The notes: a model not told the origin generated them from the letters alone. Positions 3,330-37,265 are shown, counted from the first letter of the stretch. The stretch is 42,347 bases of DNA from Sandaracinaceae bacterium (GCA_012514415.1 JAAZAH010000248.1:1-42347); one strand, 5' to 3'. Translations and numbers: made by a program.

Positions 3330-4520
3330 ATGAGCCTCCGCGATCAATCCATCGTCGTCGGCATCACGGGCGGCATCGCTGCCTATAAGGCCGTCGAGCT
3401 TCTCCGTGAGCTCGGTCGGCGAGGTGCGAGGATCCGCGCGGTGATGAGCCGCTCTGCGACGCGTTTCGTAGGTCCGATCACCCTCACGGGGCTGATCGGC
3501 GAAAGCCCCGTCGTCGATCTCTGGGATCCGTCCTATAAGGGCGAGGTCCATATCGAGCTTGGTGAGTGGGCAGATGCGATGATTGTGGCGCCGGCAACGA
3601 TGCAGTTCATTGCGAGCGCGGCCCACGGCTTCGCGGACGATCCGGTGCTTGCGACCTACGCCTCGATGCGCGGCCCGCGCTTCATCGCCCCGGCGATGCA
3701 TACGCGGATGTACGAGCGAGCAGCGACGCGGCGAAACCTCGCCCTACTTCGGGAAGACGGCGTCGGCATCATCGGACCTGTCGAAGGACCGCTCGCGAGC
3801 GGCGAGATCGGGCTCGGACGGATGAGCGAACCCAATGAGATCGCCGATGCGCTTGAGCGAGCTCTCAGGGGAACCGAGGATCTTCGTGGAAGGAAAATCC
3901 TCATCTCAGCCGGGCCGACCTATGAAGACCTCGACCCTGTGCGCTTTCTCGGCAATCGCTCGACCGGAAAGATGGGCTATGCGATCGCGTCGCGCGCGGC
4001 GAAGCGCGGCGCCGACGTGGTCCTCGTCTCCGGACCCACCACCCTCCCCTCGCCTCCCGGCGTCGAAACCATCCGCGTCCGATCCGCCATCGAGATGCAC
4101 GCTGCGATCATGGAGCGCAGGGAGGCCGCCGACGCGATCATCATGTCGGCGGCCATCGCCGATTATCGGCCTGAAGCCATTGCCGTCCATAAGATCAAAA
4201 AATCCGAGGACCTCACGCTCAAGCTCAAACGAAACCCGGATATTCTTCGGGAGCTCGGTGAGCTCCGCGGTGAGTCGAGACGGCCGGTGCTCATCGGCTT
4301 TGCGCTGGAGACGCGTGATGTCGAGGCCTCGGCGCGATCGAAACTCGAAAAGAAGCGGGTAGATCTGATTGTCGGGAACGAGGCCGCCGATGGCTTCGCT
4401 GGAGAGACCAATCGTGTGATCCTCGTCGATCACGACAGCGCCGACGCCCTACCGCTTCTATCGAAGGCCGACGTCGCCGATCGCATCCTCGACCGTCTGC
4501 TTTCGATCTTTGAACGCTAG
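3330..4520 (+). CDS. coaBC: bifunctional phosphopantothenoylcysteine decarboxylase / phosphopantothenate-cysteine ligase
   Basis: The N-terminal flavoprotein motif is IVVGITGGIAAYKAVELLR. The C-terminal CoaB half carries ILISAGPTYEDLDPVRFLGNRSTGKMGYAIA and AAIADYRP. The 396-aa length is typical of Dfp/CoaBC. Confidence 0.92.
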   Translation: MSLRDQSIVVGITGGIAAYKAVELLRELGRRGARIRAVMSRSATRFVGPITLTGLIGESPVVDLWDPSYKGEVHIELGEWADAMIVAPATMQFIASAAHGFADDPVLATYASMRGPRFIAPAMHTRMYERAATRRNLALLREDGVGIIGPVEGPLASGEIGLGRMSEPNEIADALERALRGTEDLRGRKILISAGPTYEDLDPVRFLGNRSTGKMGYAIASRAAKRGADVVLVSGPTTLPSPPGVETIRVRSAIEMHAAIMERREAADAIIMSAAIADYRPEAIAVHKIKKSEDLTLKLKRNPDILRELGELRGESRRPVLIGFALETRDVEASARSKLEKKRVDLIVGNEAADGFAGETNRVILVDHDSADALPLLSKADVADRILDRLLSIFER

Positions 4521-18378: not shown

Positions 18379-18662
18379 CTCTGCGCCATAGGGCCGCGAT
18401 CATGCCCGCTTGCGCCAGGCTCGGGCATGCGCTCCGCTCACCGATGGCCTCCATGCTTCAGCTGGCGCAAGCGACGAATTGTCATCACGAGCTGCCCGCT
18501 CGTGCCCTCGGCTGACAAGCTGTCAATGTTCGCTCCCGGACCAGGCCAAATCTTTTGGGAAAATGCGAAATCGCTCGTGGCTTAAATTTTGCTTATCTTA
18601 TACGAGTGGATAAGGGATCGCTCCACATCCGGAACCGGACCAAGCTTCATCCCGAAAGATCG

Positions 18663-19760
18663 ATGATTCGCTTCCTCGCACTTATCTTCGCCGTTCAACT
18701 CGGGGGCGTGCTCTTTGGCGCCGCCGCGCCATTTTCCGCCTCTGCACAAGAGTTCAATATCGCCGTGACCGAGCTGTCCGGACCCATCGGCACCCGCACG
18801 ACGATCGACGAGATCAATCGCGGCGTGAACCTGCTCGATTGTGAGTCGGATAGCTCGTACCTTCAGTTCGGTCTTCTCTCGGGCGGAAGCACGGCGGTGG
18901 CTTCGATCGATGTCTGGCTTGGAATCGGCAGCGAGACGTGCGTCACCGCCGCATCGAGAACGCCGCCCTCCGAGGTCTGTCGGCATCTCGGACATGTCCA
19001 GGTGGGGACTTCGCTCGGGCAGATCGACGATCCACCTCCAAACGCCATCCGCATTCCGATGAGCGAATTCCGCGACGCGGGCGAGTTCTGCGAGTTTGGC
19101 AACGCGCCGACGACGGTGAATTTTCTCCTCGTCTCCGGTCATCAGACGTACCGAGGTGAAACGAGCGCGCTCGATCCCAGTGAGTGGAAGACCATCCCGG
19201 TGCGTGTCGACGCGGGGCCTCCCAATAGTCCGCGCGTAAGTGCAACCGACGTGTCGGGCAACCGAGACATCCGCCTCTCGTGGGAGCGCGTCACGGCGGG
19301 CAGTGAAGACATCCGCTATCGAGTCTATGTGATCGCCGATGGGTGTGAGGGCAGCGAGAGTGGACCGCTCGTCCCGGGAGACCGGCCTCCCCTTGAGCTC
19401 GACGGGTTTTATATGTTCGATGTCGGCCCCGCGGTCTCCTACTCGATCGACGGGGAGGACATTGGACTCGAGGTCGGCGAGAGCGCCTCGGCATTTATCA
19501 CCTCGCGCGATGTGGCGCTCAACGAGAGCGATCTCAGCGAACGAATCTGCGTGCATCGCATCGCGACGGCCGGGTTCTGCGATGCCTGGGCGGCGGCGGA
19601 AGGCGAAGAATGCCCCACGGCCTGCTCCGCGGTGGGCGCGAGCCCGCGTTCTGTGCTTTGGACCGCGCTCGCACTCACGCTCCTCGGCTTCGTGATGCAC
19701 GCTCGCAGGAGATTCGCTCAGCGATACGCTCAGCGATACGCTCGGAGACTCGCTCGATGA
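18663..19760 (+). CDS. secreted protein with an FN3-like segment and a MYXO-CTERM-like C-terminal sorting tail
   Basis: ATG 18663 gives the signal peptide MIRFLALIFAVQLGGVLFGAAAPFSASAQE. An FN3-like stretch is present (PPNSPRVSATDVSGNRDIRLSWERVTAGSEDIRYRVYVIA). The C-terminus reads CPTACSAVGASPRSVLWTALALTLLGFVMHARRRF: Cys, then a hydrophobic helix, then an Arg cluster. Confidence 0.7.
   Translation: MIRFLALIFAVQLGGVLFGAAAPFSASAQEFNIAVTELSGPIGTRTTIDEINRGVNLLDCESDSSYLQFGLLSGGSTAVASIDVWLGIGSETCVTAASRTPPSEVCRHLGHVQVGTSLGQIDDPPPNAIRIPMSEFRDAGEFCEFGNAPTTVNFLLVSGHQTYRGETSALDPSEWKTIPVRVDAGPPNSPRVSATDVSGNRDIRLSWERVTAGSEDIRYRVYVIADGCEGSESGPLVPGDRPPLELDGFYMFDVGPAVSYSIDGEDIGLEVGESASAFITSRDVALNESDLSERICVHRIATAGFCDAWAAAEGEECPTACSAVGASPRSVLWTALALTLLGFVMHARRRFAQRYAQRYARRLAR
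19715..19743 (+). repeat. tandem 12-bp repeat (about 2.4 copies) inside the C-terminal tail coding region
   Basis: CGCTCAGCGATA occurs at 19715..19726 and again at 19727..19738, followed by a partial CGCTC. It encodes AQRYAQRYAR. Confidence 0.8.
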
Positions 19761-20479
19761 GACACCTCGTTCTTAGCCTCCTCATCGCCTCCTTCTTGGT
19801 CGCGCTCGTCGCCGCTCCCGAACGCGCCGAAGCCCAATACTCCGATGAATTCGATGGCTACTATCCGAGCCGAGAGATCTTCTCGGCTGGCATCGGCCTC
19901 GGAATGTACGTCCCCAATGTAGGCAACGATTCCTTTCGTGAGGTCTTCGGAAAGGATCGCGGCCCATACCTTACGGGCGATCTCGATTTTCGTATCCTGC
20001 GGCTTAAGGACTTCGGCGTACTTACGCTCGGTGTCCATATGGGCTGGGCGCGCTACGGCGCGGACGCATGCGGCATCGACGAAACCGGCGCAGCCGACTG
20101 CTCCAATACGGTCGAAGAGGAAACGGTCCTCCGCATCTTTCCCCTCTCCGCCCTCGCCGGACTCACCTTCGATATGCTCGCTCGGAAATGGCGCGTTCCC
20201 TTTTACGTCACAGGGCGCGTCGGCCTCGATAGTGTTTTTTATAGCGCGAAGACGGGTGGCATCCGCGATGCGGCAGGTGCCTCGCTCGGGCTTCGGTGGG
20301 AGGCAGAGCTCGCCCTCGAGCTCGATTTTCTCGATCGACGCGCTCAACGCTCGCTCGACGATGAGTGGGGCATCAATCATAGCTACCTCTTTGCCAAGAT
20401 CTTCGGTTCAACGGCCTCAACGCTCTTGGCCGTCGGGACAAAGATCGCTTGGGTCGCGGGCCTTGGTTTGGTCTTCTGA
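19757..20479 (+). CDS. putative outer-membrane beta-barrel protein
   Basis: ATG 19757 overlaps the upstream stop (ATGA). The signal peptide is MRHLVLSLLIASFLVALVAAPERAEAQ. Alternating hydrophobic strand patterns are visible, and the C-terminus ...IAWVAGLGLVF ends in the Phe typical of OMPs. Confidence 0.68.
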   Translation: MRHLVLSLLIASFLVALVAAPERAEAQYSDEFDGYYPSREIFSAGIGLGMYVPNVGNDSFREVFGKDRGPYLTGDLDFRILRLKDFGVLTLGVHMGWARYGADACGIDETGAADCSNTVEEETVLRIFPLSALAGLTFDMLARKWRVPFYVTGRVGLDSVFYSAKTGGIRDAAGASLGLRWEAELALELDFLDRRAQRSLDDEWGINHSYLFAKIFGSTASTLLAVGTKIAWVAGLGLVF

Positions 20480-24131: not shown

Positions 24132-27100
24132 TTAGCCCTTGAGTGAAGAGAGAAGATCGGCGGCTTGGCTATGATCCTTCTCCTCGCTGAGCGCGCGCTC
24201 GAGCATCGAGATCGCCCTTCGCGCATCGCCCTGCTTCGCCGCGATATCTCCGAGGTAGAAATAGATATCGCCCTTCGTGATGCCCGATTGATCGTCGAGG
24301 CGCTGAAGAAGGAGCGCCCGGAAGGTCTTCTGCGCTCGCTCGAGATCGCCCTGCTCGTAGCTCAGCTTCCCAAGATCTCGAAGCACGGCGATGTTTGTGA
24401 GATCGATACGGAAGGCCGACTCGTATTCTTCGAGCGCTTTGGCGATCTCGCCCATGCTCTGATACGCGCGTCCAAGCCGATGATGGAATGCCGCAAGCTC
24501 CTTGGTGCGCCGACCGCCGAAGCTCTCGATGATCTTTTCGAGGACGGGGATCGCATCGGTCTGTCGTCCTGCGTCGACATAGAGATCGCAGAGCGGAAGG
24601 AGGATCTCGCGATCGTCCGGTGCTAGGGCGGAAGCCTTCTCAAGGTATTCGGCCGCGCGCGCCGGATCGCTCAGGCGATGTTGATAGAGCTCAGCGAGGC
24701 TGCGTAGGTGCGCGATCTTCGCCGCATCATCGGCGGCCTCCTCGAACTCGAGCTCGAGCAGATCGCCAAGCGCTTCAAAGTTCCCCTTGCGCTCGTGGAA
24801 AGCTTTGAGCGCGGCTCGGCTCTCGACGTCCGAGGGATCGAGATCGAGGGCAAAGCGAAGGGCGCGCTCTTCGAGGGTGACGTCGGCGAGCTTCTCGCGC
24901 GCCATCTCGGCGAGCTCCCTCGCGCGCTGCAGCGCGTCGGAAGGCTCGCGGAGGGCAAGTGAGCGTTCAAGGATCGCTGCAGCCTGGATCTCATCGCCCG
25001 CCTCGCTATGGATGCGGAAGAGCGCATCCAAGGTCGCGAGATCCTCGGGCGCGAGCTCGAGGACGCGCTCGTAATAACCGATGGCTCCGTCGCGATCGCC
25101 GCGCTTTTCGAGGTGAAGATCGGCGAGCTGAAGGAGGATGGTGCGCTTTGTCTCGGGATCGTCTTCAGCGGAGAAGCGTCGCTCGGCGAGTTCGACCGCC
25201 TCATCGTAGCGCTCCTCGAGGACGTAGAGACGTTCGAGCTCGCTGAGGGCCTCGGCATTCGAAGCGTCGAGATCGAGGGTCTCTTGGAGCACGTCGATCG
25301 CCTCGGCACGTCGGCCGAACGCCGTCTCCTCAAGACGCGCCATCCGAACCCTCGCAGCGATGCGGTCCGCATCGGTCTCGGCGAGATCGAGGCGACGATC
25401 GATGAGCTCACGCAGATCATCCCAGCGTTCGGCCTTCTCGTAGAGCTCTTCGAGTGCTGAAATGGCGGCGAGATCGCCCGGCTCTTCGTCGAGGATGCCC
25501 ATGAAGGCCTCGATGGCTCGCTCGCTATCTTCGAGCCGGCCGCCGTAGAGCGCGCCGACGCGCCGGCGCAAGCTAAGACGCGTATCCGGATCGTCTTCGA
25601 CCTCGATCCGGCGCTCGTAAAGCTCGGCGAGTTCCGTCCACTCTTCGCGCGCTTCACGGAGGCGCGAGAGCTCTGCCAACGCTTCACGTTCGCTCGGATC
25701 GTTCTCGAGGAGGGCCTCAAGATGCACGATGGCCTCATCGACCTTCCCAAGCGACTCGGAAATGCGAGCCGCCTCGAGACGGAGCTCCCGAAGAAGATCA
25801 TCGCCGGGACCTCGCTCGGCCCATGCGCTCAAGGCGGCAACGAGCTTCTCCGGATCGCCCTCCTCCCTGAGGAGCGCGACGAGCTGTGAATTCGCCTCTT
25901 CGGATTCGGGATCTCCTTCGATGGCTGAGCGGAGCCGGCTCTCAGCTGCCTCTCGATCGCCCAGCTGATCGCGATACCACCCCGCGGCGCGCAGGTTGAG
26001 ATCGTGCCGGTTCATCGGATCAAGCCCAGCCTCTTGGGCGCGCTCGACGAGCCCACGGAGCTTCTCCGTGGCGCCCGCGAGAAGCGCGAGACGCTCGATC
26101 TCGTCGATCATCGAGATGTCGGTCGGCTCCAGCTCGAAGGCGCGGAGGCGCGCCGTAAGCGCGCGTGTCGGCTCGCGCAGTTCCTCTTCCCAGAGCGCCG
26201 CCGCTTCGAGATAGAGCGCAACCTTCTCTCCCGGGTTCATCGCGAGTTCGACGCGCCTCGTGTAGAGCTCGGCCGCGGCGCGAAGATCGCCCGACTCACG
26301 ATAGGCGCGGTCGAGGACTTCGATGCAGTCGTGGACAAGGCCCGGATCCTCGGCGATCTCGAAGAGCGCTTCGCGCGCGTCCATACGCGAGGGCTCGATC
26401 TCGAGCATCCGCGAGTACGCATCGAAGGCACCGTTCAGATCGGCGAACCGCTCTTTGCGAATGGCGCCGATGCGCGCAAGGAAGTCGAGCTGCGCCTCGG
26501 GTTCGAGCGCCGCTTCGAGCCGTTTTTCAAGCACCGGCGCGAGCTCGTCGTATTGCTCGCGCAGCGTATAGAGCCGATCGAGTTGCTCGAGGATCAACTC
26601 ATCGTCGGGGTTGGCTTCGGCCGCCCGGGCCATCGTTCGCGCGGCCCGCTCGAGATCTTCGAGCGCGCCCTCGGCGATCTCCGAGACGCGCTTGAAGAGC
26701 CGTGCGCGCATATCCGGATCGCCCACCGTTTGAGCCGAGTTCTCGAATAGATCGGCGAGCTCGGCGAATTTGCCGGTCTCGTCGCCGAGCCGGTCGAGCT
26801 CGTGGAAGATCGTCTCGTCCTCCGGCTCCTCGGCGAATGCACGCGCATAGGCGTCGAACGCCGCCGGGAGATCACCGCGGCAGGCGTCGTGAACTTCGGC
26901 AAGCGCGCGAAGCTTTTCTTTCTTCCCGAAAGGATCGACGCTTCCGGCAGCCGATAGCTCGAGGATCTCGGCAAGCTCATCAAAGCGCGACAGTTCGCGG
27001 AGGCGCGGCTCGAGAATCTCGGCGGCGCGCTCCCGGTATTGCTCGAGTCGAGCGATGCGCATAAGCGCCTCCAGCGCTTCGCTGCTTTCGGGATCGTGCA

Positions 27101-30100
27101 AGAAGACCTCCTCGTAGGTCGTGATGGCCTCTTCGACGTCGTCGAGATCGCGTTCGAGCACCTCGCCGGCGCGGAGGATGAGCGCAACCTTCGGCGCACC
27201 TTCAGCGAGATCCGCTTGCGTGCGCAGGATGTCGAGGAGGTTTCGGTGATCGCCCTTTCGCTCAAAGAGCCGCGCCAGACCGGAGAGCGCTTCACCGTGC
27301 GCGGGATCGATCAGGATCACATTCTCGAGTGCAGCGATCGCCCGGTCGGCATCGTCGAGCTGAACCTCATGGAGACTCGCGAGGCGAAGGCCGAGCGCGA
27401 TCCGCTCCGAATCCTCATCTTCGAGCCCGATGAGCCGCTCGACCACCTCGGCGAGCGCCGCATAATCGGCTTTCGCGAGATAGAGCCGGTCGAGCGCTTC
27501 GAGCGCGTTGCGGTCGCTCTCATCTTCATCCGCCGCGCGGCGATAAAGCTCGATCGCACGTTCGGGATCGACCACGAGCTCTTCGACGACACTCGCGGCG
27601 CGGCGGAGGAGCTCCGCTCGCTCGATCGGATCGACCGAGCGCTCAACCTTCTTCTCGATCACGGCGACCATCCCGAGCCAATCGCCGACCATCGTGTGAA
27701 GTTCTTCGAGCGCGTCGTGCGGCGCGGGATCGTCGGGTAGGAGCTCGGCAAGGCGCTCGTAGGTCGCGATCGCGGCGCGCGAATCACCAAGACGCTCATC
27801 CTGATAGCGCGCCACCTGTTCGAGGAGCTCTCCGGCGCGGACGGGATCGTCGCTCACCCCTTCGGCGGCGCGCTGATAGCCCGCAACCAGCTCCTCATAG
27901 CAGCCAAGCTCATCGGCAAGACGATCGGCCTCATAGCGCGCCTCATCCTCCATGGGATCGGCTTCGAAGGCGCGCAGGAACGCCTCGAAGGCGTGGTTCA
28001 AATCCCCGCCGTTTTCTTCATGAAGCCGCGCGATCTCGAGGAGGATATCCCGCCGATCCACCGGATCGTCGCTATGTTGAGCGCGCGCTTCGAGGATGGC
28101 GATCTGCTTCATCCACTGCCCCGAGTCGCGATAGAGCGGCTCGAGGATCTCGCTGATTCGAACCTGCGCCGATTCGATGACGATCCATTCCTCGAGCGTG
28201 GCGATGGCGCCCGAATGATCCGGATCGTCGCCAACGATCTCTTCGAGGAGATCGATCGCCTCGTCGGTTGAATCGAGCTCTTCGTGAAGGAGGCGAGCAA
28301 GGCGGTGTCGCGTCTCATTGCGCGCCGCATCCTCGAGTTCACCCTCTGCACGGAAGCGGAGGTGATCGGCGAGCTCCTCGTAGCGCTTGGTTTGACGAAG
28401 CAGCTTTTCAACGGCATCGAGCGCCGGGCGATAGCTGGGATCGCTCTCGAGCGCGCTTCGATAGAACGCGAGCGCCGCTTCAACATCCGCGCGCTTGACC
28501 TCTTCGATGATCGCAGCGCGGCGAAGGATCTCGACGCGCTCGTCCTCAGTCTCCGCGTTATCGGCGCCGGCGCGATAGAGCTCAACGAGTTCGGCCCAAT
28601 CCTCGAGCTCCTTGAGGGTGCGCTCGAGGGATTCGAAGACGTCGCGATTCGAGGGATCGAAATCGAGCGCGCGCTTGAGGAGCGGCGCCGCCTTCGCGGG
28701 GGCATTCACTCGATCGAGATAGTAGTGCCCTGCGAGACTTGAAAGCTCGGCTGTTTCGGGACCGTCGACGTCGATTTTTTCAAGCGCCTCGGCGAAGATA
28801 TCCGCGAGCCTCTCCCAACGATCCTGAACGCGGGCGAGTCGGGTGAGCGTCTCCCAAGTCTCCTGATCGTAGGGATCTTCATTGAAGAGCCGCGCATACG
28901 CCTCGAGCGCGCCATCGAGATCCTCGAGATAATCCTCGTGGAGCTGGCCCATGCGTTCGAAGATCTCTTTTCTCGCCTCAAGATCATCCTCGATGGAGAG
29001 GCAGGCATCGAGCGCCGCACTCACCTTCGCCCAATCCGAGCGCGAGAGATAGACGGGCTCGAGGAGACGAGCTGCGTCGCCTCGGAAGCGATCGCCTGCC
29101 ATCAGCTCTTCGAGATAGCTCACCGTCTCGTCGTGTTCCGCACCGCTGACGGTATTCTCTTTGAGGAGATCGAAGGCCGTGAAGGGATCGTCCCGTTTGT
29201 CAAGGAGAAGCCGAGCGAGCGCGAGACGAGCGGACGCGATCTCTCCAATGCCCTCGTCGATTTGACGCTCAAGGAGCTGAATCAGGTCGTCATAGCGCCG
29301 CGCACGTCGATAAAGGCGCGCGAGCGATTCGAAGGTGCTGACGTCCCGAGCACCCAGGTCGATGACCCGCTCGAGGCTGTCGATGGCCCCGCTGATGTCT
29401 TCGAGCTTTTCCTCAGCGATCGAAGCAAAGCGCAGGAGAACTTCGGCCTGCTCGGCGTCGCTCTCGGCGATCTCGGCTTTTCGCCGCAGGATATCGGCCA
29501 GCGCTTCGTGCTCCTCCATATCGACGAAGAGACGATCGAGTGCGTGGAGCGCGCCCCGATGCTCGGGCTGGTTCTCGAGCGCGCGCTCGTAATAGGTTCG
29601 CGCCGTCGCTTTGTCTCCGAGTCGATCGAGCGCGATCGTCGCGATCTCCATCAACACCTCGACGACAAGCTCGCCGTCCATGATGTCGGGCGCGGCTTGT
29701 TTGAGGATCTCGACGTGCGCTTCGGGCTCATCGGCGCGCTCGGCCACCCGGCGAAGCTCGGCTACGAGATCGCCCGCGTCATCCGATGAGGCACCGACAA
29801 GAAGCGCCCGTCCCATCAGCTCGAAGGCGCGCTTTGCGCCATCGTCCGCAAGATCGGCGATCTCCGACGCACGCCGGAGCGATTCGACGCGCTCGTAGGC
29901 ATCGTCACTTTCGCCGAGCACCTCGAGCGCGCGGATCAAGCCCTCATGATCGCCTCTCGCCTCGAAGACGGGGCGGAGCGCGCGAGCGGCGCTCACACGA
30001 TGTTCGAGATCGTCACCAAAAGCGATGGAAGAGAGCGATTCGAGCGCGCCCTGGTGTTCCGGGCGCTCGCTCAAGATGTCTTCAAGGATCTCGATGGCAC

Positions 30101-33100
30101 TTTCGATATCGCGCGTATGCTTCCTCTGGATTTCGGCGATCTGATAGCGGAGCTCGGCCCGCTCACTCGGCTCCTCCGTAAGCTCGCTCCGCGTCTCGAG
30201 GATCTCGCGGAGGTCTTCCCATTTCTCTCCCTTTTCGTAGAGCCTTGTGAGCGCGATGAGCGTGGACTCATCGGTCGAAAAGCGCGAAAGCACCTCGTTG
30301 TACGCCACGATGGCGTTTTCGGCATCGTTCAACTTGGTTTCGTAGATCTCACCAATGCGCCGACAGATCTCGAGCTGCTCATCCTCCTCATCGGCGACCG
30401 TTTCATGGTTCTGAAGCACGCCGATAAGTTCGAGCCACTCCCCATTTTGCTCATGAAGGCGCTCGAGCGCTCTGAGCGCGCCGCGATCGGCCGGATCGTG
30501 CTCGAGCCGCTCACGGTGTGTGGCGATGGCGCCTTCGAGATCGCCGAGTTGAAGCTCGTAAAGATCCGCGACGCGAATGAGAAGCGCATTTCGTGCTTCG
30601 TAATCGTCTTCGTAGCGCGCCTGGCGGCGAAGATCTTCAATGAGCGCCGGATAATCCTCGCTCGCAAGATGGATCCGCTCGAGCGCCTTGGAGACCGTCA
30701 TCACAGTCTCGGGGTTGTCGGGGTCGATGTCGAGGAGCCGGACGAAGACCTTCTTCGCACGCTCATCATCGCCGATTTCGTCTTGGAGGAGCGCGCCGAC
30801 GACGAGGAGGATCTCTGCCTCGACATAAGGCGTATTGGAGTTTTCTGCCGCACGGAGAAGCGAGGCTGCGGCGCCTTCGAGATCGCCCTTTCGACGTGCG
30901 ACGCGAAGAAGAGATTCGCGCGCGGGGAGATCGTCGGGATCGACTTCGACCGCGCTCGCGAGCGCCGAGAACGCGCGCTCGAGATCGTTGAGATTCCTCT
31001 CGGCGATCTCGGCGAGACGCACATAAAGGGAGAGACGATGCGCAGGATCGGCCGCCTCATCGAGCTGCACTTCGAGGATGCGGGTGAGCTCGGGCCAGGC
31101 GCCTTGGCTTTCGTAGAGGGGTTCAAGGATGGTGGCGATCCGCTGGCGCTCGCTCTTCGTGTCGAGGATGCGTTCGAGCGCCTCTTGAGCGGCGAGGTGC
31201 CTTGGGCTTCGCTCGAGAACCAGTTCGAAATGATCGACCGCGTGGTGCGGCTCATTCAGCCTCTTCTCGTAAAGCTCACCCACCTCGAGATGGAGCTCGA
31301 TGGCTTCTTGGCCTTCGGCAGTCTCGAGGTTCTCGAGAAGGATGGCGACCAGATCGGACCAGCGCTCGCGCTGCCGGTAAAGACGCTCGAGCGCGACCTG
31401 GCTCGGCGCGTGATCGGGAGCGAGTTCGAGCACTGCCTGATACGACTCGATCGCCATGTCGGGCTCTTCGAGAATCTCCTCGAAAAGAAAGCAGACCTGG
31501 CGGAGGAGCTCGAGTTTCCCGTCCGGATCGCTCGTCTCTGCGATGCGATTGCGATAGAGCGCCTGAAGGTCGTCCCAGCGCTCGCGCGTCGTATAGAGCT
31601 CCTTCAGCGACTCGAATGAGGTGTCGTCAAGTGGGTCGAGGGCCAGGCGCTTCTTATGGAAGGGCTCGGCCTTCTCGCTCTCGCCGAGGATCGTGTCGTA
31701 GATCTCGGCGGCGCGGCCGGAAAGCTCGCTGATGACGCTCGGATCGAGATCGTCCGAAGCCTCGAGCGCGGTGCTCAGGGCCTCAGCGAGCTCACGGTGA
31801 GCGTTCGCGGCTTCGGCGGCGCCTCCCAAGCGGTCCCAAAGCTCGGCATCGTCGGGGCGCTCGAGAAAGGCGGCTTCAAGCGCGCGATAGGCGCCCTTGG
31901 GATCGTTGAGTTCGGACGCCGCGAGTTCGGCGAGGCGAAGGCGGAGCTCCTGCTTCTCGAGTTCATCGTCCAATGCGTCGAGGCGCTTTTTGAGGATCTC
32001 CGCGAGGCGCGCGTAGTTCCCCTTGCGGGTATAAGCCGCTTCAAGATAGCGACCCGCCTCGATGGCCTGGGCGGGAATCTCCCGATCGATGCGCTCGAGC
32101 GCGGCGATTGCCATCGCACTCTGACGATCGAATTCGAGCGCGCGACCCAGCCTCTCCACGCCCTCCTCGGCCTGATTGAGTTCGAAGGCCTGAAGGCTAC
32201 CGAGACGGGTTTCGAGCTCGGCTCGCGCCGCGTCGTCGAGGTCAAGTCGATCGAGACGTCGCTCAAGGATGCTCGCCTGCTCTTGGTGGAGCCCGAGCGC
32301 GCCGGTCAGACGATCGAGGCCCTCGAGGGCTTCAGCATGAGCCGGTTCGATCTCGATCAGCTCACGATAGAACTTCGCCGCGCGTTCGTGATTTCCGCGA
32401 AGCTCCTCTTCGAGGCGAGCGAGACCAAGGAGCGTCTCCACCCGCGCCGCCTCGTCTTCGATGTGCTCGAGGCGGTGCTCGTAAAGTGACACGAGGTCGT
32501 CGATGCGGTTCAAGTCGCGATAGAGAGCGTCCAGCTTGCGGAGCGCCTCTCCGTCCTGAGGCTCGGCCTCGAGAATCGCGTTGAGCTGGTCAATTGCCTC
32601 TTCTGTATCGCTCAGCTGCTCGTTTGCGAAGGCCGCGATGCGGCGGCGAAGCTCGAGCGCTTCATCGTGAGGAGCGCCCGGAAGCCGGGCCTTGTAGAGC
32701 TCCACAACGCGTTCATAGTCACCGACGAGTCCCGCGAGCTTCTCGAGCGATGTGCGGACGTCCGCGTCACTCGGTTCGACTTCGAAGGCTCGGACGGCCC
32801 ATCCGAACGCGCCCTTCTCATCGCTCATCTTTTCAAGGCGAAGATCGCGGATGCGCTGAGCAAGTTCGAGCTTCTCTTCAGGCGCGGGCGCATCTTTTTG
32901 CGCCGGATCGGCGTTCGCGAGGATCTCGAGCATCTCGACGAGCCGGGGCCATTTCTCATCGTGCGTATAAATCGGCACGAGTGCCTTCGCGGCGCGGAGG
33001 TTGCCCGGATCAAGGTTCAGAACGCGCTCATAGCTACGGAAGCCACGCTGCGGCTCGCCGATTCGCTCAGCATAGACCGCGGCCGCGCGGAAGCTGAGTT

Positions 33101-35333
33101 CGATCTTCTCTTCGACGTCCTCGACCCGCTCGGCGCCCTTGCCGAGCACGTCAACGAGCCCCTCCCAATCTTCGGTCTCGGCGTAGAGCGCCTCGAGGGC
33201 ATCATAATCGCGCGCACGAAGGTAGCTCTCGCGAAGTGTGCGGAGCGCGCGGCCATTTTTCGGATCGATGGCGAGGAGACGCTTCCACGCCTCGGCAGCG
33301 GCCTGTGCGTCGTCGAGGCGATCTCCAAGGGTCTGCCCAAGCTTTTGAAGGAGTGCCGCTCGCTCTTGATCGCTCTCGGAACGCTCGATCTTCTTCTCAA
33401 GGGCTTCGACAAGGCTCGGCCAATCCTGAGCACGCTCGGCGAGCCGCTCAATTTGCTCGTAGGCTTCCGCTTCATCCCCCGAGAGCTCGGCGATCTTTTT
33501 CCATTCGCCGATCGCTTCGCCATACTCGTGAAGGCGTTCGCCGCGGATTTGCGCGAGTTCACGGCGGAGGTCGAGCGGATCGCCTTCGCCGAGCTCGAGC
33601 ATTCGCCCAAGCACTTCCGCCAGCTTCGCCCATGCGCGCTTCTTCGCGTAGATCTGCCGGAGCTGCTGGAGGGCCTCGAGGTGGTTGGGATCGAGTTCGA
33701 CGATGGCTTCAAGCGGTTTGGTCGCCTGGTTGAAGTTCGCAAAGCGCTCGATCCAGAGCGTCGCCGTCCGGAGATGAAGCGCGATCTGCGTATCGCGATC
33801 TTCTTCGATTTCGGCGCGCTTCGCGAGAAGCTGAAGAAGCTCATTCCACCGGCCGAGGCTCTCGTATGTGCTCGCAAGGTCCCTGAAGGCACGCTCGTTC
33901 TTCGGATCGAGGGCGAGGATCTGCTGCGAGGTCTGCACCACCATCGCATCGAGGCCGAGGCGATCGCGATAGAGCGTGACGAGCTCTTCGAGGATCTCGA
34001 GTTTGCGCTCGAGCGCATCGTCGCCGAGAGAGTCGAACTCGGCGCGAAGCACTTCAACGAGCGCGTTCCACTTATCTCCCTGCGCGAAGAGCTCGCGGAG
34101 CGCCTCTTGCGCGCGCGTGTTGCTTCGATCGAGCCGCTGAACGGATTTCCAAGCGTCGATCGCGCGCTCGACGATTCCCGATCGCTGGGCGGCCTCGGCA
34201 AGGCGGATGGAGAGCGCGAGCTTTTCTTCGGGATCCGTCACGACTCGCTGTGCATCGCTCAGAATGGAGACGAGCTTCCCCTCCGGATCGCCACCTTCGT
34301 AGTAGCTCTCGTAGAAGTTGAGCATCGCGCCATTGCGCGGATCGAGCTTACGGAGGCGGGCAAAATACGGCTCGGCGCTTTCTGCATCGCCCCGCATCCG
34401 GTAATGGACCATGCCGATCTGAAGCAGGATCCCCTGCTCATCCTCGAGGCGCTGCCGGCCTCTCAGCGCATCGTCATAGATCGCGACGACATGGTCCCAT
34501 TCCTCACGCTCGGTGAAGTATCCGACGAGGAATTCCATCGCCTCGGTATGGCCCGGCGTGAAATCGATCACTCGCTCATAGCAAGAGGCCGCACCCTCCT
34601 CATCCTCGAGGAAATGTCGCCGGAGACGTCCCGCGTGGAGATAGCATTGGAGCTTTTCGTCGCGATTTCTCCCCGCATCACCGGCGGCGAGGAGAAGACT
34701 CGCCAGCTCTTCATAACGCTCCTCGGCCCGAAGCATCACGCTATAGAGGCGCACAGGGCGCATCTGCCCCGGCTCCACGGAGACGGCGAGCCGGAAGAGT
34801 TCGTCGACCTTTTCGCGGCTTTCTTCGCCGCCGTACATATAGAGCGTCGCTGCGGCTCGGCTCAAAAACGAAGACTTCAGCGTAGGATCGCTCGCCGCCT
34901 CGGCCTCTTCAACGAAGCGCGCGGCGATGTCTTGGTAGCTGCTTTCGGCGTGCTCCATCTGCTCGAGTGCCTCTTCGGCCTGCTCGTCCTCGGGGTCGAT
35001 CTCAAGGACCTTTTGATAGGCCTCGAGTGCCCCCTCGGCGTCGAGGAGCTCTTCTCGCCGAATGCGTCCAAGCTCGCGATAGAGCGCGGCTTGAAAGGAA
35101 GGATCGTCCCCGACCATCCGCGCTTCGATGTCGATGAGCGCAGCTGCCGCAAAATATTCAGCGCGCCGCTCGTGACCGACGCGCGCACTCTCGAGGAGGC
35201 GGACAGGATCGTCGCCGAGGGCTTCTTGGTCGCCCGATTCAACGATCGCTTTGATCCCCGCGATCGACTCAACATCAAAAGGGTCTTTTTGGAGACGAGC
35301 GAGATAATTCGAAACCGAAAGTTTGGTCATCAT
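24132..35333 (-). CDS. giant tetratricopeptide-repeat protein (about 3,733 aa from ATG 35333; 3,750 aa if TTG 35384)
   Basis: This is a single uninterrupted frame of 11.2 kb. From about residue 100 to the C-terminus the sequence is a continuous run of TPR-like helix pairs with the recurring motif A..Y..VL..DP.N..AL..L..LY......W.EL. AGGGGA lies just upstream of the ATG ATG pair at 35333/35330. I saw no signal peptide or TM helix. Confidence 0.9.
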   Translation of the reverse strand: MMTKLSVSNYLARLQKDPFDVESIAGIKAIVESGDQEALGDDPVRLLESARVGHERRAEYFAAAALIDIEARMVGDDPSFQAALYRELGRIRREELLDAEGALEAYQKVLEIDPEDEQAEEALEQMEHAESSYQDIAARFVEEAEAASDPTLKSSFLSRAAATLYMYGGEESREKVDELFRLAVSVEPGQMRPVRLYSVMLRAEERYEELASLLLAAGDAGRNRDEKLQCYLHAGRLRRHFLEDEEGAASCYERVIDFTPGHTEAMEFLVGYFTEREEWDHVVAIYDDALRGRQRLEDEQGILLQIGMVHYRMRGDAESAEPYFARLRKLDPRNGAMLNFYESYYEGGDPEGKLVSILSDAQRVVTDPEEKLALSIRLAEAAQRSGIVERAIDAWKSVQRLDRSNTRAQEALRELFAQGDKWNALVEVLRAEFDSLGDDALERKLEILEELVTLYRDRLGLDAMVVQTSQQILALDPKNERAFRDLASTYESLGRWNELLQLLAKRAEIEEDRDTQIALHLRTATLWIERFANFNQATKPLEAIVELDPNHLEALQQLRQIYAKKRAWAKLAEVLGRMLELGEGDPLDLRRELAQIRGERLHEYGEAIGEWKKIAELSGDEAEAYEQIERLAERAQDWPSLVEALEKKIERSESDQERAALLQKLGQTLGDRLDDAQAAAEAWKRLLAIDPKNGRALRTLRESYLRARDYDALEALYAETEDWEGLVDVLGKGAERVEDVEEKIELSFRAAAVYAERIGEPQRGFRSYERVLNLDPGNLRAAKALVPIYTHDEKWPRLVEMLEILANADPAQKDAPAPEEKLELAQRIRDLRLEKMSDEKGAFGWAVRAFEVEPSDADVRTSLEKLAGLVGDYERVVELYKARLPGAPHDEALELRRRIAAFANEQLSDTEEAIDQLNAILEAEPQDGEALRKLDALYRDLNRIDDLVSLYEHRLEHIEDEAARVETLLGLARLEEELRGNHERAAKFYRELIEIEPAHAEALEGLDRLTGALGLHQEQASILERRLDRLDLDDAARAELETRLGSLQAFELNQAEEGVERLGRALEFDRQSAMAIAALERIDREIPAQAIEAGRYLEAAYTRKGNYARLAEILKKRLDALDDELEKQELRLRLAELAASELNDPKGAYRALEAAFLERPDDAELWDRLGGAAEAANAHRELAEALSTALEASDDLDPSVISELSGRAAEIYDTILGESEKAEPFHKKRLALDPLDDTSFESLKELYTTRERWDDLQALYRNRIAETSDPDGKLELLRQVCFLFEEILEEPDMAIESYQAVLELAPDHAPSQVALERLYRQRERWSDLVAILLENLETAEGQEAIELHLEVGELYEKRLNEPHHAVDHFELVLERSPRHLAAQEALERILDTKSERQRIATILEPLYESQGAWPELTRILEVQLDEAADPAHRLSLYVRLAEIAERNLNDLERAFSALASAVEVDPDDLPARESLLRVARRKGDLEGAAASLLRAAENSNTPYVEAEILLVVGALLQDEIGDDERAKKVFVRLLDIDPDNPETVMTVSKALERIHLASEDYPALIEDLRRQARYEDDYEARNALLIRVADLYELQLGDLEGAIATHRERLEHDPADRGALRALERLHEQNGEWLELIGVLQNHETVADEEDEQLEICRRIGEIYETKLNDAENAIVAYNEVLSRFSTDESTLIALTRLYEKGEKWEDLREILETRSELTEEPSERAELRYQIAEIQRKHTRDIESAIEILEDILSERPEHQGALESLSSIAFGDDLEHRVSAARALRPVFEARGDHEGLIRALEVLGESDDAYERVESLRRASEIADLADDGAKRAFELMGRALLVGASSDDAGDLVAELRRVAERADEPEAHVEILKQAAPDIMDGELVVEVLMEIATIALDRLGDKATARTYYERALENQPEHRGALHALDRLFVDMEEHEALADILRRKAEIAESDAEQAEVLLRFASIAEEKLEDISGAIDSLERVIDLGARDVSTFESLARLYRRARRYDDLIQLLERQIDEGIGEIASARLALARLLLDKRDDPFTAFDLLKENTVSGAEHDETVSYLEELMAGDRFRGDAARLLEPVYLSRSDWAKVSAALDACLSIEDDLEARKEIFERMGQLHEDYLEDLDGALEAYARLFNEDPYDQETWETLTRLARVQDRWERLADIFAEALEKIDVDGPETAELSSLAGHYYLDRVNAPAKAAPLLKRALDFDPSNRDVFESLERTLKELEDWAELVELYRAGADNAETEDERVEILRRAAIIEEVKRADVEAALAFYRSALESDPSYRPALDAVEKLLRQTKRYEELADHLRFRAEGELEDAARNETRHRLARLLHEELDSTDEAIDLLEEIVGDDPDHSGAIATLEEWIVIESAQVRISEILEPLYRDSGQWMKQIAILEARAQHSDDPVDRRDILLEIARLHEENGGDLNHAFEAFLRAFEADPMEDEARYEADRLADELGCYEELVAGYQRAAEGVSDDPVRAGELLEQVARYQDERLGDSRAAIATYERLAELLPDDPAPHDALEELHTMVGDWLGMVAVIEKKVERSVDPIERAELLRRAASVVEELVVDPERAIELYRRAADEDESDRNALEALDRLYLAKADYAALAEVVERLIGLEDEDSERIALGLRLASLHEVQLDDADRAIAALENVILIDPAHGEALSGLARLFERKGDHRNLLDILRTQADLAEGAPKVALILRAGEVLERDLDDVEEAITTYEEVFLHDPESSEALEALMRIARLEQYRERAAEILEPRLRELSRFDELAEILELSAAGSVDPFGKKEKLRALAEVHDACRGDLPAAFDAYARAFAEEPEDETIFHELDRLGDETGKFAELADLFENSAQTVGDPDMRARLFKRVSEIAEGALEDLERAARTMARAAEANPDDELILEQLDRLYTLREQYDELAPVLEKRLEAALEPEAQLDFLARIGAIRKERFADLNGAFDAYSRMLEIEPSRMDAREALFEIAEDPGLVHDCIEVLDRAYRESGDLRAAAELYTRRVELAMNPGEKVALYLEAAALWEEELREPTRALTARLRAFELEPTDISMIDEIERLALLAGATEKLRGLVERAQEAGLDPMNRHDLNLRAAGWYRDQLGDREAAESRLRSAIEGDPESEEANSQLVALLREEGDPEKLVAALSAWAERGPGDDLLRELRLEAARISESLGKVDEAIVHLEALLENDPSEREALAELSRLREAREEWTELAELYERRIEVEDDPDTRLSLRRRVGALYGGRLEDSERAIEAFMGILDEEPGDLAAISALEELYEKAERWDDLRELIDRRLDLAETDADRIAARVRMARLEETAFGRRAEAIDVLQETLDLDASNAEALSELERLYVLEERYDEAVELAERRFSAEDDPETKRTILLQLADLHLEKRGDRDGAIGYYERVLELAPEDLATLDALFRIHSEAGDEIQAAAILERSLALREPSDALQRARELAEMAREKLADVTLEERALRFALDLDPSDVESRAALKAFHERKGNFEALGDLLELEFEEAADDAAKIAHLRSLAELYQHRLSDPARAAEYLEKASALAPDDREILLPLCDLYVDAGRQTDAIPVLEKIIESFGGRRTKELAAFHHRLGRAYQSMGEIAKALEEYESAFRIDLTNIAVLRDLGKLSYEQGDLERAQKTFRALLLQRLDDQSGITKGDIYFYLGDIAAKQGDARRAISMLERALSEEKDHSQAADLLSSLKG

Positions 35334-35412
35334 TCCCCTGGGCAGGCCGCTCCGATGGTATCCATCCGAAGCGCCTTCCATCAAGCGTTATTCCCGGACG
35401 AAGTCGCGCGGC

Positions 35413-36117
35413 TCATTTGAGCATGATCGCTCCCGACCAAGTGAGCGTCGCGTACGTGGCATAACCCACAAGGAGGTGCGCTGTCGCGATCCCTTGGAGG
35501 GCGCGGTAGTTTTCAGAGCGAGAGAGACCGAAGGCATCTCCATTGGCAGAGAGGATGCCGAGAAGGATTTGAGCGGCCATTCCGCCGAGATGCGCCCAGC
35601 GGAGCCGCTTGTGCTGGCGGAGCCGTCGGGCGGATTTTGAATCGCCTTCATCGAGGCCGATCGGATCGGGCATGGCGAAGGAGAGGCCAAACGTGGTGAA
35701 ATAAAGTGCGCCACCGAGGGCCACGGTCGTCGTATGCGACACGGGTCTCCCGATGCATGCATCTTGGCCAAAGATGGCCCTCCCCTCGACGCATGGTGTC
35801 GCTTCGAGAGGGCTGAAGAAGCCGTAGAGGTTGCGGTATTGGATTGTGCCGAAGACGCTCGCCGCCGTCATGGCGATCCACGTCGAGATGCCCAGCCATT
35901 GGTGGGCCTTGCCGATCTTCCGGCGTTTATCGAGCAGCCGTGCGACGTCTTCCGAGCTGAGCTCGGCGCCCTTGGCCATCGCGACTGCGCCCTCGGCGCT
36001 CAGGTGGGCGCCCGCCGTATGAACCGCAGCGCTTGCGACGATGGACGGATCGATCTCGAGCGCATAACTCGTGGGGAGCGGGCTCGTGAGGAGGAGTGCG
36101 AGAAAGAGCGAGGGCAT
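35413..36117 (-). CDS. multi-pass membrane protein of unknown function, immediately upstream of the giant TPR gene
   Basis: ATG 36117 gives MPSLFLALLLTSPLPTSYA, a signal-like N-terminus. Hydrophobic helices include WLGISTWIAMTAASVFGTI, TTVALGGALYFTTFGLSFA, LGGMAAQILLGILSA and ATAHLLVGYATYATLTW. It is on the same strand as the TPR gene, 28 to 79 nt upstream. Confidence 0.62.
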   Translation of the reverse strand: MPSLFLALLLTSPLPTSYALEIDPSIVASAAVHTAGAHLSAEGAVAMAKGAELSSEDVARLLDKRRKIGKAHQWLGISTWIAMTAASVFGTIQYRNLYGFFSPLEATPCVEGRAIFGQDACIGRPVSHTTTVALGGALYFTTFGLSFAMPDPIGLDEGDSKSARRLRQHKRLRWAHLGGMAAQILLGILSANGDAFGLSRSENYRALQGIATAHLLVGYATYATLTWSGAIMLK

Positions 36118-36344: not shown

Positions 36345-37265
36345 ATGGCGCTCTTCGACTCCCTCCCCGCCGAGGTCTCCATCTACGAAGTCTCCCCCCG
36401 TGACGGCCTCCAGAACGAAGCCGCACAGGTCGCGACCCATTCCAAGGTTCGGCTCATCGAAGCGTTGCTCGAAAGCGGGCTACGTCGCGTCGAAATCGCG
36501 AGCTTCGTCTCGCCCAAATGGATTCCGCAGCTGGCCGACGGGGAACAGGTCGCTCGGCTGATCGGAGAGCGCGAGGGTGCCGCATTTTCGGCGCTCTGCC
36601 CCAATGGCCGGGGGCTCGAGCGGGCCATTGCCGCGGGCATGAAAGAGGTCGCCGTCTTCATCAGCGCGAGCGAGACGCACAATCAGAAGAACGTCAATAA
36701 GTCGATCGACGAGACGCTTCGCGCCTTTGATGAGGTGATCGAGCCGGCCATCGAGGCAGGTCTCCGCGTCCGTGGATATGTCTCTACACTCTGGGGGTGT
36801 CCCTACGAAGGCGAGGTGGACCCCCGCGCCGGACTTCGAATCGCTGACATCCTTCTAGAGCGCGGCTGCTATCAGATCAGCCTCGGCGATACGATCGGCG
36901 TCGGCACTCCGCTCCAGACCAAGCGAATCCTCGAACTTTTCCTCGCGTCCATCCCGGCCGATAAGCTCGCTCTCCATCTTCACGACACGCGCGGAACGGC
37001 CCTCGCCAATGTGATCGTCGGACTCGAGATGGGCATCCGGACGTACGACGCGAGCGTCGGTGGGCTCGGCGGCTGTCCCTACGCTCCGGGGGCCGCGGGA
37101 AACCTCGCGACCGAAGATCTCGTCTATACGCTCGAGGGGATGGGCATCCGCACCGGGGTCGACCTTGAAAAGTTATGGCGGGCGGGACAGATCGCCGAAG
37201 CCATTGTGGGGCGAGAGCTTCCAGGGAAAGTGCATCGGGCCGGGGTGCGTTCGCTTTCGGGCTGA
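36345..37265 (+). CDS. hydroxymethylglutaryl-CoA lyase
   Basis: Motifs present: VSIYEVSPRDGLQNE, SFVSPKWIPQ, HLHDTRGTALAN and GLGGCPYAPGAAGNLATEDL, the DRE-TIM HMGL family signature. Confidence 0.9.
   Translation: MALFDSLPAEVSIYEVSPRDGLQNEAAQVATHSKVRLIEALLESGLRRVEIASFVSPKWIPQLADGEQVARLIGEREGAAFSALCPNGRGLERAIAAGMKEVAVFISASETHNQKNVNKSIDETLRAFDEVIEPAIEAGLRVRGYVSTLWGCPYEGEVDPRAGLRIADILLERGCYQISLGDTIGVGTPLQTKRILELFLASIPADKLALHLHDTRGTALANVIVGLEMGIRTYDASVGGLGGCPYAPGAAGNLATEDLVYTLEGMGIRTGVDLEKLWRAGQIAEAIVGRELPGKVHRAGVRSLSG

Follow-up and report, generated by a model that had tools for sequence, protein, structure and literature searches.

The window analysed here, a stretch of 42,347 nucleotides from a Sandaracinaceae bacterium (GCA_012514415.1 JAAZAH010000248.1:1-42347), contains on its minus strand one giant gene, probably of 3,733 codons, whose product is an array of tetratricopeptide repeats (TPR) related to GltI/AgmK (MXAN_4863, UniProt Q1D2V1), the cytoplasmic TPR giant of 3,822 aa that belongs to the Agl-Glt gliding machinery of Myxococcus xanthus (PMC4508894, PMC11761067). 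Taken together, the results point, with a probability of about 0.6, to a multivalent scaffold of the cytoplasm that resembles GltI and belongs to a distinct family of paralogues; what this statement says on structure and evolution is near certain, whereas the mechanism is much less so. It should be noted that a giant cytoplasmic TPR scaffold is of a known kind, represented by GltI, and that the window protein belongs to a sister family of it and not to a categorically new system. In the paper library searched, no account was found of this sister family, of the regular 72-residue module or of the nearly constant length of its members.

BLOSUM62 autocorrelation of the protein revealed a main peak at a lag of 72 residues (z = 20 relative to shuffled sequences) with sub-peaks at 17, 34 and 55, and an iterated hidden Markov model (HMM), in which 16 seed copies gave a module of 67 columns, detected 50 modules at a threshold of E < 1e-5, which together account for 85% of the protein. 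An earlier note on this DNA, made from the sequence alone, had estimated about 50 two-TPR modules, had measured spacings of 74, 72 and 70 residues by hand and had written out a module motif; the number agrees with the HMM, the spacings are exact (W439, W513, W585 and W655), and the motif was reproduced by the HMM consensus, RLAELYEERLGDPERAIEALERALELDPDDEEALEALERLYEEKGDWEELAEILERRLEA. The conserved tryptophan anchor proposed in the same note did not hold, as the presumed anchor position is occupied by W in only 19 of the 50 modules and by Y, H and F in 12, 4 and 3, respectively, i.e., it is aromatic in 38; the whole protein contains 30 tryptophan residues. Identity between the modules of the window protein was 23.5% on average, with a maximum of 45%.

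AlphaFold2 (AF2) models covering the N-terminal 760 and the C-terminal 800 residues (predicted local distance difference test, pLDDT, 90.3 and 91.9, respectively) were uninterrupted helix-turn-helix arrays, the latter to its last residue, which corresponds to a continuous solenoid. All Pfam and NCBIfam matches on the protein were of the TPR type (TPR_6, 7e-46; TPR_7, 2e-45; TPR_8, 4e-42), and the Pfam ARM_TT21 models matched it as well; significant matches to TPR models together with the predicted solenoid place the protein in the TPR superfamily. Canonical TPR_1/2/8/11 matches cluster at residues 3573-3732, at the C-terminal end where the earlier note had located them, in a block with the motifs LLPLCDLY..AGRQ.DA.PVLEKII and DLTN..LRDLG...GDL.RAQKTFRALLLQ. 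The composition is dominated by L (14.3%), E (14.2%), A (13.8%), R (9.9%) and D (8.5%), the net charge is -371, and each 250-aa tile is negative (-14 to -37), in accordance with the description of the product as rich in E, D, L, A and R and acidic throughout. No 19-residue window had a Kyte-Doolittle value above 1.6 (maximum 1.57, in a segment with charged residues), and inspection of the sequence found no P-loop, HExxH motif, signal-like N-terminus or lipobox, so that the lack of a signal peptide, transmembrane helix, P-loop or catalytic domain noticed by eye was upheld by hydropathy, motifs and domain matches alike. It is near certain that the giant protein is a continuous acidic TPR alpha-solenoid of the cytoplasmic type with about 50 individually conserved modules, and it lacks any enzymatic, membrane or secretion element.

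The open reading frame (ORF) recognised in the earlier note, 24132-35384 with about 3,750 aa, is exact and lies on the minus strand, while the coding sequence (CDS) is likely shorter (3,733 aa from the ATG at 35333). The N-termini of orthologues align at a shared M-x-x-L-x-V-S-N-Y-L, and on this alignment the gene likely starts at the ATG and not at the TTG codon of the maximal ORF. The first HMM module begins at ORF residue 104, and the AF2 model is helical from residue 7.

Conservation was assessed by a genome scan with one genome per species and the N-terminal region as the query, which yielded 118 loci, 80 of them retained. The retained loci belonged to metagenome-assembled genomes (MAGs) of the Myxococcota type, mostly Polyangiales/Sandaracinaceae, with a few other or uninformative labels, and were 42-76% identical to the query. 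The giant frame was intact in 39 whole-gene loci from Polyangia genomes (3,727-3,799 aa); together with the window protein, these 40 sequences had a median length of 3,739 aa and a standard deviation of 14.8 aa (0.4%), and the orthologues aligned nearly without gaps over approximately 3,715 positions with an identity of 40-52%. Since the modules are 23.5% identical within the protein and 40-52% identical at orthologous positions, the array is old and each module has been kept individually, and the number of modules appears to have been held constant by selection. Conservation was highest in the block of canonical TPRs at the C-terminus (consensus identity 0.70-0.76) and at residues ~318-418, 718-818, 1218-1318 and 2518-2618. 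In a comparison with a relative of 85% amino acid identity and the same gene order over 30 kb (L092), the ratio of nonsynonymous to synonymous substitution rates (dN/dS) of the giant gene was 0.085, with values of 0.05-0.11 in every 500-codon tile, against 0.043 for the flanking hydroxymethylglutaryl-CoA (HMG-CoA) lyase gene and 0.19 for the class-IV aminotransferase gene; these ratios are approximate because dS was about 1.1. Purifying selection on the giant gene is strong and uniform along its length.

These data also bear on the possibility that the gene encodes merely a generic fast-evolving TPR protein, that it is an artefact of assembly or annotation, or that its product is a periplasmic protein or lipoprotein similar to PrsT or MamA. 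The last variant draws on the NCBIfam summed scores, which exceed the cutoff for MamA (NF040959; 261 bits, cutoff 200) and nearly reach it for PrsT (TIGR02917; 311.3, cutoff 312.2). However, these scores are sums of 11 and 14 separate repeat stretches, respectively, matched to models of 204 and 899 positions, the best stretches covering only residues 3532-3689 and 3489-3744, and neither the signal peptide nor the lipobox of a PrsT-like protein is present. An artefact is contradicted by the ORF being intact in 39 genomes, by the dN/dS of 0.085 and by the DNA of the gene, in which no long or near-identical repeats were found; the lack of DNA repeats together with the divergence of the modules excludes misassembly by repeat collapse. 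Conservation has thus already refuted this explanation, save in the trivial sense that the product is a TPR protein, and the gene is not the assembly artefact considered in the earlier note.

Copies of the giant gene with early stops were found in contigs whose names suggest long-read ('tig'-type) assemblies, with frameshift-type garbage past the break. Premature stops broke the orthologue into three to five called genes in the MAGs L001, L002, L020, L028, L030, L036 and L075, several of which have contig names of this kind, and in P0001 the translation was out of frame past residue ~460. The split orthologues are probably the result of sequencing frameshifts rather than pseudogenes.

An exhaustive HMMER profile search of 1.84 billion representative proteins yielded 3,093 proteins below E = 1e-30. 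Of the 150 that scored best, nearly all were 3,400-4,200 aa in length, and all 150, with the exception of a few truncated entries, aligned with the window protein over ~2,500-3,800 residues at an identity from 48% down to 22%. Average-linkage clustering of the best 150 revealed two old branches into which the superfamily splits, branch A (clusters 1-6, 105 sequences) and branch B (clusters 7-10, 45 sequences). The window protein fell into cluster 5, along with 72 representatives. Identity between the branches was 22-25%, which is about the background of 23.5% among the window protein's own modules.

The branches also differed in the way they align with the window protein. Branch-A proteins P0014, P0033, P0063, P0102 and P0151 gave single high-scoring segment pairs of 3,500-3,780 aa (26-48% identity), and in branch A the top alignment register scored 1.5- to 7-fold above the next (1071 vs 325 bits for P0063, 1409 vs 202 for P0033, and 790 vs 394 for P0102). 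For the branch-B proteins P0117, P0163, P0067, P0094 and P0084, three or four registers lay within ~25% of each other, as in P0117 (544/461/456/415 bits) and P0094 (557/549/541/504 bits). When the last 370 aa of P0094 served as a BLAST query, a C-terminal domain of ~360 aa was detected in 43 of the 45 branch-B representatives and in none of the 105 of branch A. The window protein has the features that define branch A, namely, an end-to-end single register, the N-terminal head (M..L.VSNYL...DP.D) and the canonical-TPR C-terminus, in a family whose members are of 3.7-3.9 kaa. The HMM derived from the window protein recognised 45 modules each in P0117 and P0067 and 41 in P0094, and the branch-B proteins are acidic, with 41-49 modules and a period of 72. 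The 72-residue double-TPR module is the signature of the whole superfamily, including GltI, in Myxococcota and relatives. In addition, one relative of 7,720 aa (P0108) carries 88 module copies, about twice the usual array, and clusters apart from both branches.

Branch B was identified from gene context and the literature, no Myxococcus-named member being among the 30 representatives checked. The gene of P0117 (4,076 aa) is directly followed by that of a protein with a Zn-ribbon and a GYF domain, an architecture like that of GltJ, and P0067 of Lujinxingia litoralis follows a row similar to gltD/E/F/G, consisting of genes for a 1,105-aa TPR protein, 470-aa and 96-aa proteins, a 664-aa FHA protein and a TonB_C protein. 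According to the supplement of PMC3169522, the AgmK homologues of Anaeromyxobacter and Stigmatella are of 4,074-4,104 aa and adjoin gltJ. A substantial C-terminal helical domain has been described in GltI (PMC11761067). Because of these neighbours, the C-terminal domain and the published sizes, branch B is GltI/AgmK proper.

The window protein resembles GltI/AgmK in that both are giant TPR solenoids (3,733 and 3,822 aa), both are devoid of signal peptides and transmembrane segments, and both are confined to Myxococcota and close relatives; with the GltI-type proteins recognised by gltJ or gltD-G neighbours it shares the acidic character and the 72-residue module, present there in 41-49 copies. 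It differs from GltI in having no non-TPR helical domain of ~360 aa at the C-terminus, in not being encoded beside gltJ, gltG or gltD-F, and in possessing a conserved N-terminal head and a C-terminal block of canonical TPRs of its own; the disordered Pro/Ser-rich insert of the GltI-type protein P0094 is likewise missing from it. Length control is tighter in branch A than in the GltI branch. As the C-terminal domain, the glt linkage and positional homology are all missing, the window protein is not GltI in the strict sense and, as judged by sequence comparison, is a paralogue and not an orthologue of it. The window protein is thus no orphan lacking known relatives, the 72-residue module architecture being common to GltI/AgmK, and the finding of a characterised orthologue, by which the earlier note would have been refuted, has strictly speaking not occurred, GltI being a paralogue.

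It was also considered whether the giant protein might be the true GltI orthologue of its lineage, moved out of the glt cluster and deprived of the C-terminal domain. The module type, the approximate module number, the similar size, and the acidic and cytoplasmic character would all agree with this, and no assembly with both branches was found. Nevertheless, relocation appears improbable, given that clusters 1-6 are separate from clusters 7-10 at an identity no higher than the background, that a single register dominates in branch A whereas the GltI-type registers score alike, and that the C-terminal domain is distributed as described above. Moreover, among MAGs named Polyangiaceae, some (P0180, P0194, P0232, P0276 and others) hold branch B, where GltI-type genes have a synteny of their own, with a gene for a 309-aa TPR protein upstream and an FHA-sigma54 activator gene downstream, and others (L007, L012, L079 and P0373) hold branch A. 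According to the supplement of PMC3169522, the glt cluster of Sorangium contains the homologues sce2920 and sce2921.

Several observations on GltI-type loci were made in the same comparison. The FHA-sigma54 activator gene was downstream in all three Polyangiaceae loci L085, L090 and L091, and the gene for the 309-aa TPR protein was directly upstream of the GltI-type gene in L085 and likewise in Lujinxingia (L087). In one Myxococcales MAG (L083/L084, 3801-9639), a complete chemosensory module (CheY, CheW, a methyl-accepting chemotaxis protein and CheA-CheW-REC) precedes the gltI-gltJ pair, which is reminiscent of the AgmK-FrzCD association that has been reported (PMC3447774).

With regard to function, GltI is a cytosolic protein that forms clusters at focal adhesions, and mutants of gltI do not move and lose their AglZ/MglA clusters (PMC4508894). 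AlphaFold-Multimer has predicted repeated sites along GltI at which small domains of membrane proteins would bind, six for GltG-FHA and two for GltJ-GYF (PMC11761067). By analogy, a GltI-like scaffold of the distinct paralogous family would act as a long rigid docking platform, on which several copies of one partner, or several different partners, might be held at fixed spacings in the cytoplasm, so organising a larger assembly. The rod would be ~100 nm long if the ~1,100 Å modelled for GltI scales, and the first candidate docking sites would be the C-terminal block and the four most conserved internal segments listed above.

A number of observations weigh against this interpretation. The similarity to GltI-type proteins is at the module level only (22-25% identity, no unique register), which weakens the analogy itself. 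Comparison of per-column conservation among orthologues and among paralogous modules singled out mainly buried structural positions, with no obvious ligand-binding face. Branches A and B were not found together in one assembly when GltI-type C-terminal fragments on long contigs and locus-tag prefixes were compared. Finally, the neighbourhoods of branch-A genes give no functional hint, varying by clade between ketoacyl synthase and phosphatase genes, his genes with a defence island, and flagellar genes.

An overlapping explanation is that the giant protein is the scaffold of some other envelope-spanning or polar machine, or a cytoskeleton-like element, that takes no part in gliding and whose length serves as a molecular ruler. 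The standard deviation of 0.4% in length among the 40 sequences despite more than 50% sequence divergence, the individual conservation of each module, the position of branch A beside a flagellar cluster in one metagenomic contig and the lack of glt linkage in any of ~60 loci speak for it. A constant length could, however, also simply reflect the difficulty of insertions and deletions in a tightly packed solenoid; this explanation is regarded as unlikely. The scaffold or ruler role proposed in the earlier note is supported insofar as a near-invariant length at 40-52% identity fits such a constraint; the closest known relative, GltI/AgmK, was missed there. A bolder proposal, that with branch A the Myxococcota possess a second giant-scaffold system in its own right, in which an acidic TPR rod of ~100 nm with about 50 fixed modules would be the ruler or organiser of a cytoplasmic or envelope-associated assembly distinct from Agl-Glt and coexisting with GltI in the same cells, is possible but doubtful.

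Comparison with other known TPR proteins was performed at the level of structure and of family models. A Foldseek search of the PDB with the N-terminal 760-aa model gave CTR9, IFT139/TTC21B, Ski3 and OGT as the best matches (E from 1e-11 to 1e-8). CTR9 (Paf1C), IFT139/TTC21B (IFT-A), Ski3 and the TPR domain of OGT are, like the window protein, superhelical TPR platforms, and they organise multi-subunit complexes; they are 3-5 times shorter and have an identity of 11-16% and TM-scores of 0.15-0.27 to the window model, so that only the fold class is shared. None of these four proteins is known to have a regular 72-residue double-repeat periodicity. MamA, PrsT (PEP-CTERM), LapB and PilW have TPR repeats in common with the window protein, with a 4- to 18-fold gap in size, and the scanned ORFs of the window included no genes for magnetosomes, PEP-CTERM or lipopolysaccharide assembly. 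Identity with MamA or PrsT was rejected, as there was no contiguous full-length match, PrsT was below the cutoff, a signal peptide was missing, and so was the gene context of these families in the window ORFs scanned. The Joint Genome Institute (JGI) label on several relatives was 'golgin subfamily B member 1'. Automatic naming of the giant TPR family is unreliable, considering this label and that the MamA model passes its cutoff. In long-read MAGs, the genes are split by probable frameshifts.

Of all parts of the bacterial gliding machine based on focal adhesions, GltI is the least understood; it has been proposed to cluster several motor units via repeated binding sites, and it is now placed in a much larger superfamily built on one 72-residue module. 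Branch A, being widespread in the sampled Polyangia genomes and MAGs, devoid of the GltI C-terminal domain and located away from glt, offers a comparison by which the role of the array can be separated from that of the C-terminal domain. It also points to a second myxobacterial structure that would need a rod of ~420 kDa and is a clean natural case of the fixation of repeat number in very long repeat proteins. The giant gene is thus a testable lead both for myxobacterial cell biology and for repeat-protein evolution.

The coordinates of the giant gene, its parts and the neighbouring genes are given in Table 1.

Table 1. Features of the giant TPR gene and of its upstream neighbours in the window
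Feature	Coordinates	Strand	Description
Maximal ORF	24132..35384	-	TTG to stop; 3750 codons; intact single frame
Probable CDS, stop codon included	24132..35333	-	ATG, MMTKLSVSNYL...; 3,733 aa; 422.6 kDa; pI 4.57
N-terminal head, ORF residues 18-103	35076..35333	-	Helical; outside the 72-aa module HMM; kept among branch-A orthologues
Array of ~50 double-TPR modules of 72 residues, ORF residues 104-3750	24135..35075	-	Module HMM and autocorrelation
C-terminal block of canonical 34-aa TPRs, ~ORF residues 3531-3750	24135..24794	-	Pfam TPR_1/2/8/11/12/19 matches; conservation 0.70-0.76
Upstream neighbour u262	35413..36117 (maximal ORF to 36201, 262 aa)	-	234 aa from ATG; syntenic with the giant gene within Polyangia
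HMG-CoA lyase gene	36345-37265	opposite to giant gene	Further upstream than u262

Scans for promoter and terminator consensus sequences at both ends of the giant gene found nothing. Many long plus-strand ORFs lie antisense to it (26004-35420), e.g., 32667..35420 (917 aa) and 29946..31619 (557 aa), and are taken to be shadow ORFs of a coding region with 62% G+C and not genes.

The N-terminus of the u262 product is signal-like, and its four moderately hydrophobic helices carry one histidine apiece that is invariant among 55 orthologues, in which a PCV.G...C cysteine pair and the motifs MPDP and HK.LRW are likewise conserved; the product had no Pfam, NCBIfam or PDB match. Its sequence suggests that it may be an undescribed four-helix membrane protein, possibly haem-binding. 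Of 82 loci, 57 had the u262 gene in the vicinity of the giant gene; in most of these it lay immediately upstream in the same orientation, in eight it was on the other strand, and in a few it was 1-3 kb away. The HMG-CoA lyase gene was near the giant gene in 48 loci, and in several genomes either it or u262 had the other orientation or lay kilobases away; the class-IV aminotransferase gene was present wherever the locus reached far enough, always ~11.2 kb past the giant start. Neither u262 nor the HMG-CoA lyase gene was found at the loci of the more distant branch-A members P0063, P0102 and P0151; the synteny of u262 that the earlier note had suggested checking thus exists within the Polyangia clade, with strand and distance varying, but not beyond it at these three loci. 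In both the window and L092, the HMG-CoA lyase gene and the giant gene lie on opposite strands; in many other orthologous loci the two are co-directional, which suggests small local inversions around a fixed giant gene. The synteny of u262, the lyase and the aminotransferase was not accepted as a sign of functional coupling, since it is limited to Polyangia and the orientation is variable, and their arrangement is read as clade-level gene order and not as an operon partnership.

Beyond the HMG-CoA lyase gene, a TetR gene is followed by OEP and HlyD-type (resistance-nodulation-division, RND) efflux genes; on the 3' side, there is a convergent class-IV (branched-chain-type) aminotransferase gene and then housekeeping genes. 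No glt, agl, FHA or GYF gene was found in the surroundings of the giant gene in the window. In another contig (L089, 1-9819), branch-A P0151 (3,821 aa) lies beside a flagellar cluster (fliP/O/N/M/L, motAB and fliJ), upstream of prkA/DUF444/spoVR. Branch A may extend to organisms other than typical gliding myxobacteria. Elsewhere in the window, adjacent plus-strand genes at 18555-20479 matched the MXAN_2561 family (weakly, 32 bits, cutoff 150) and the MXAN_2562 family (outer-membrane beta-barrel), which fits a myxobacterial origin of the window.

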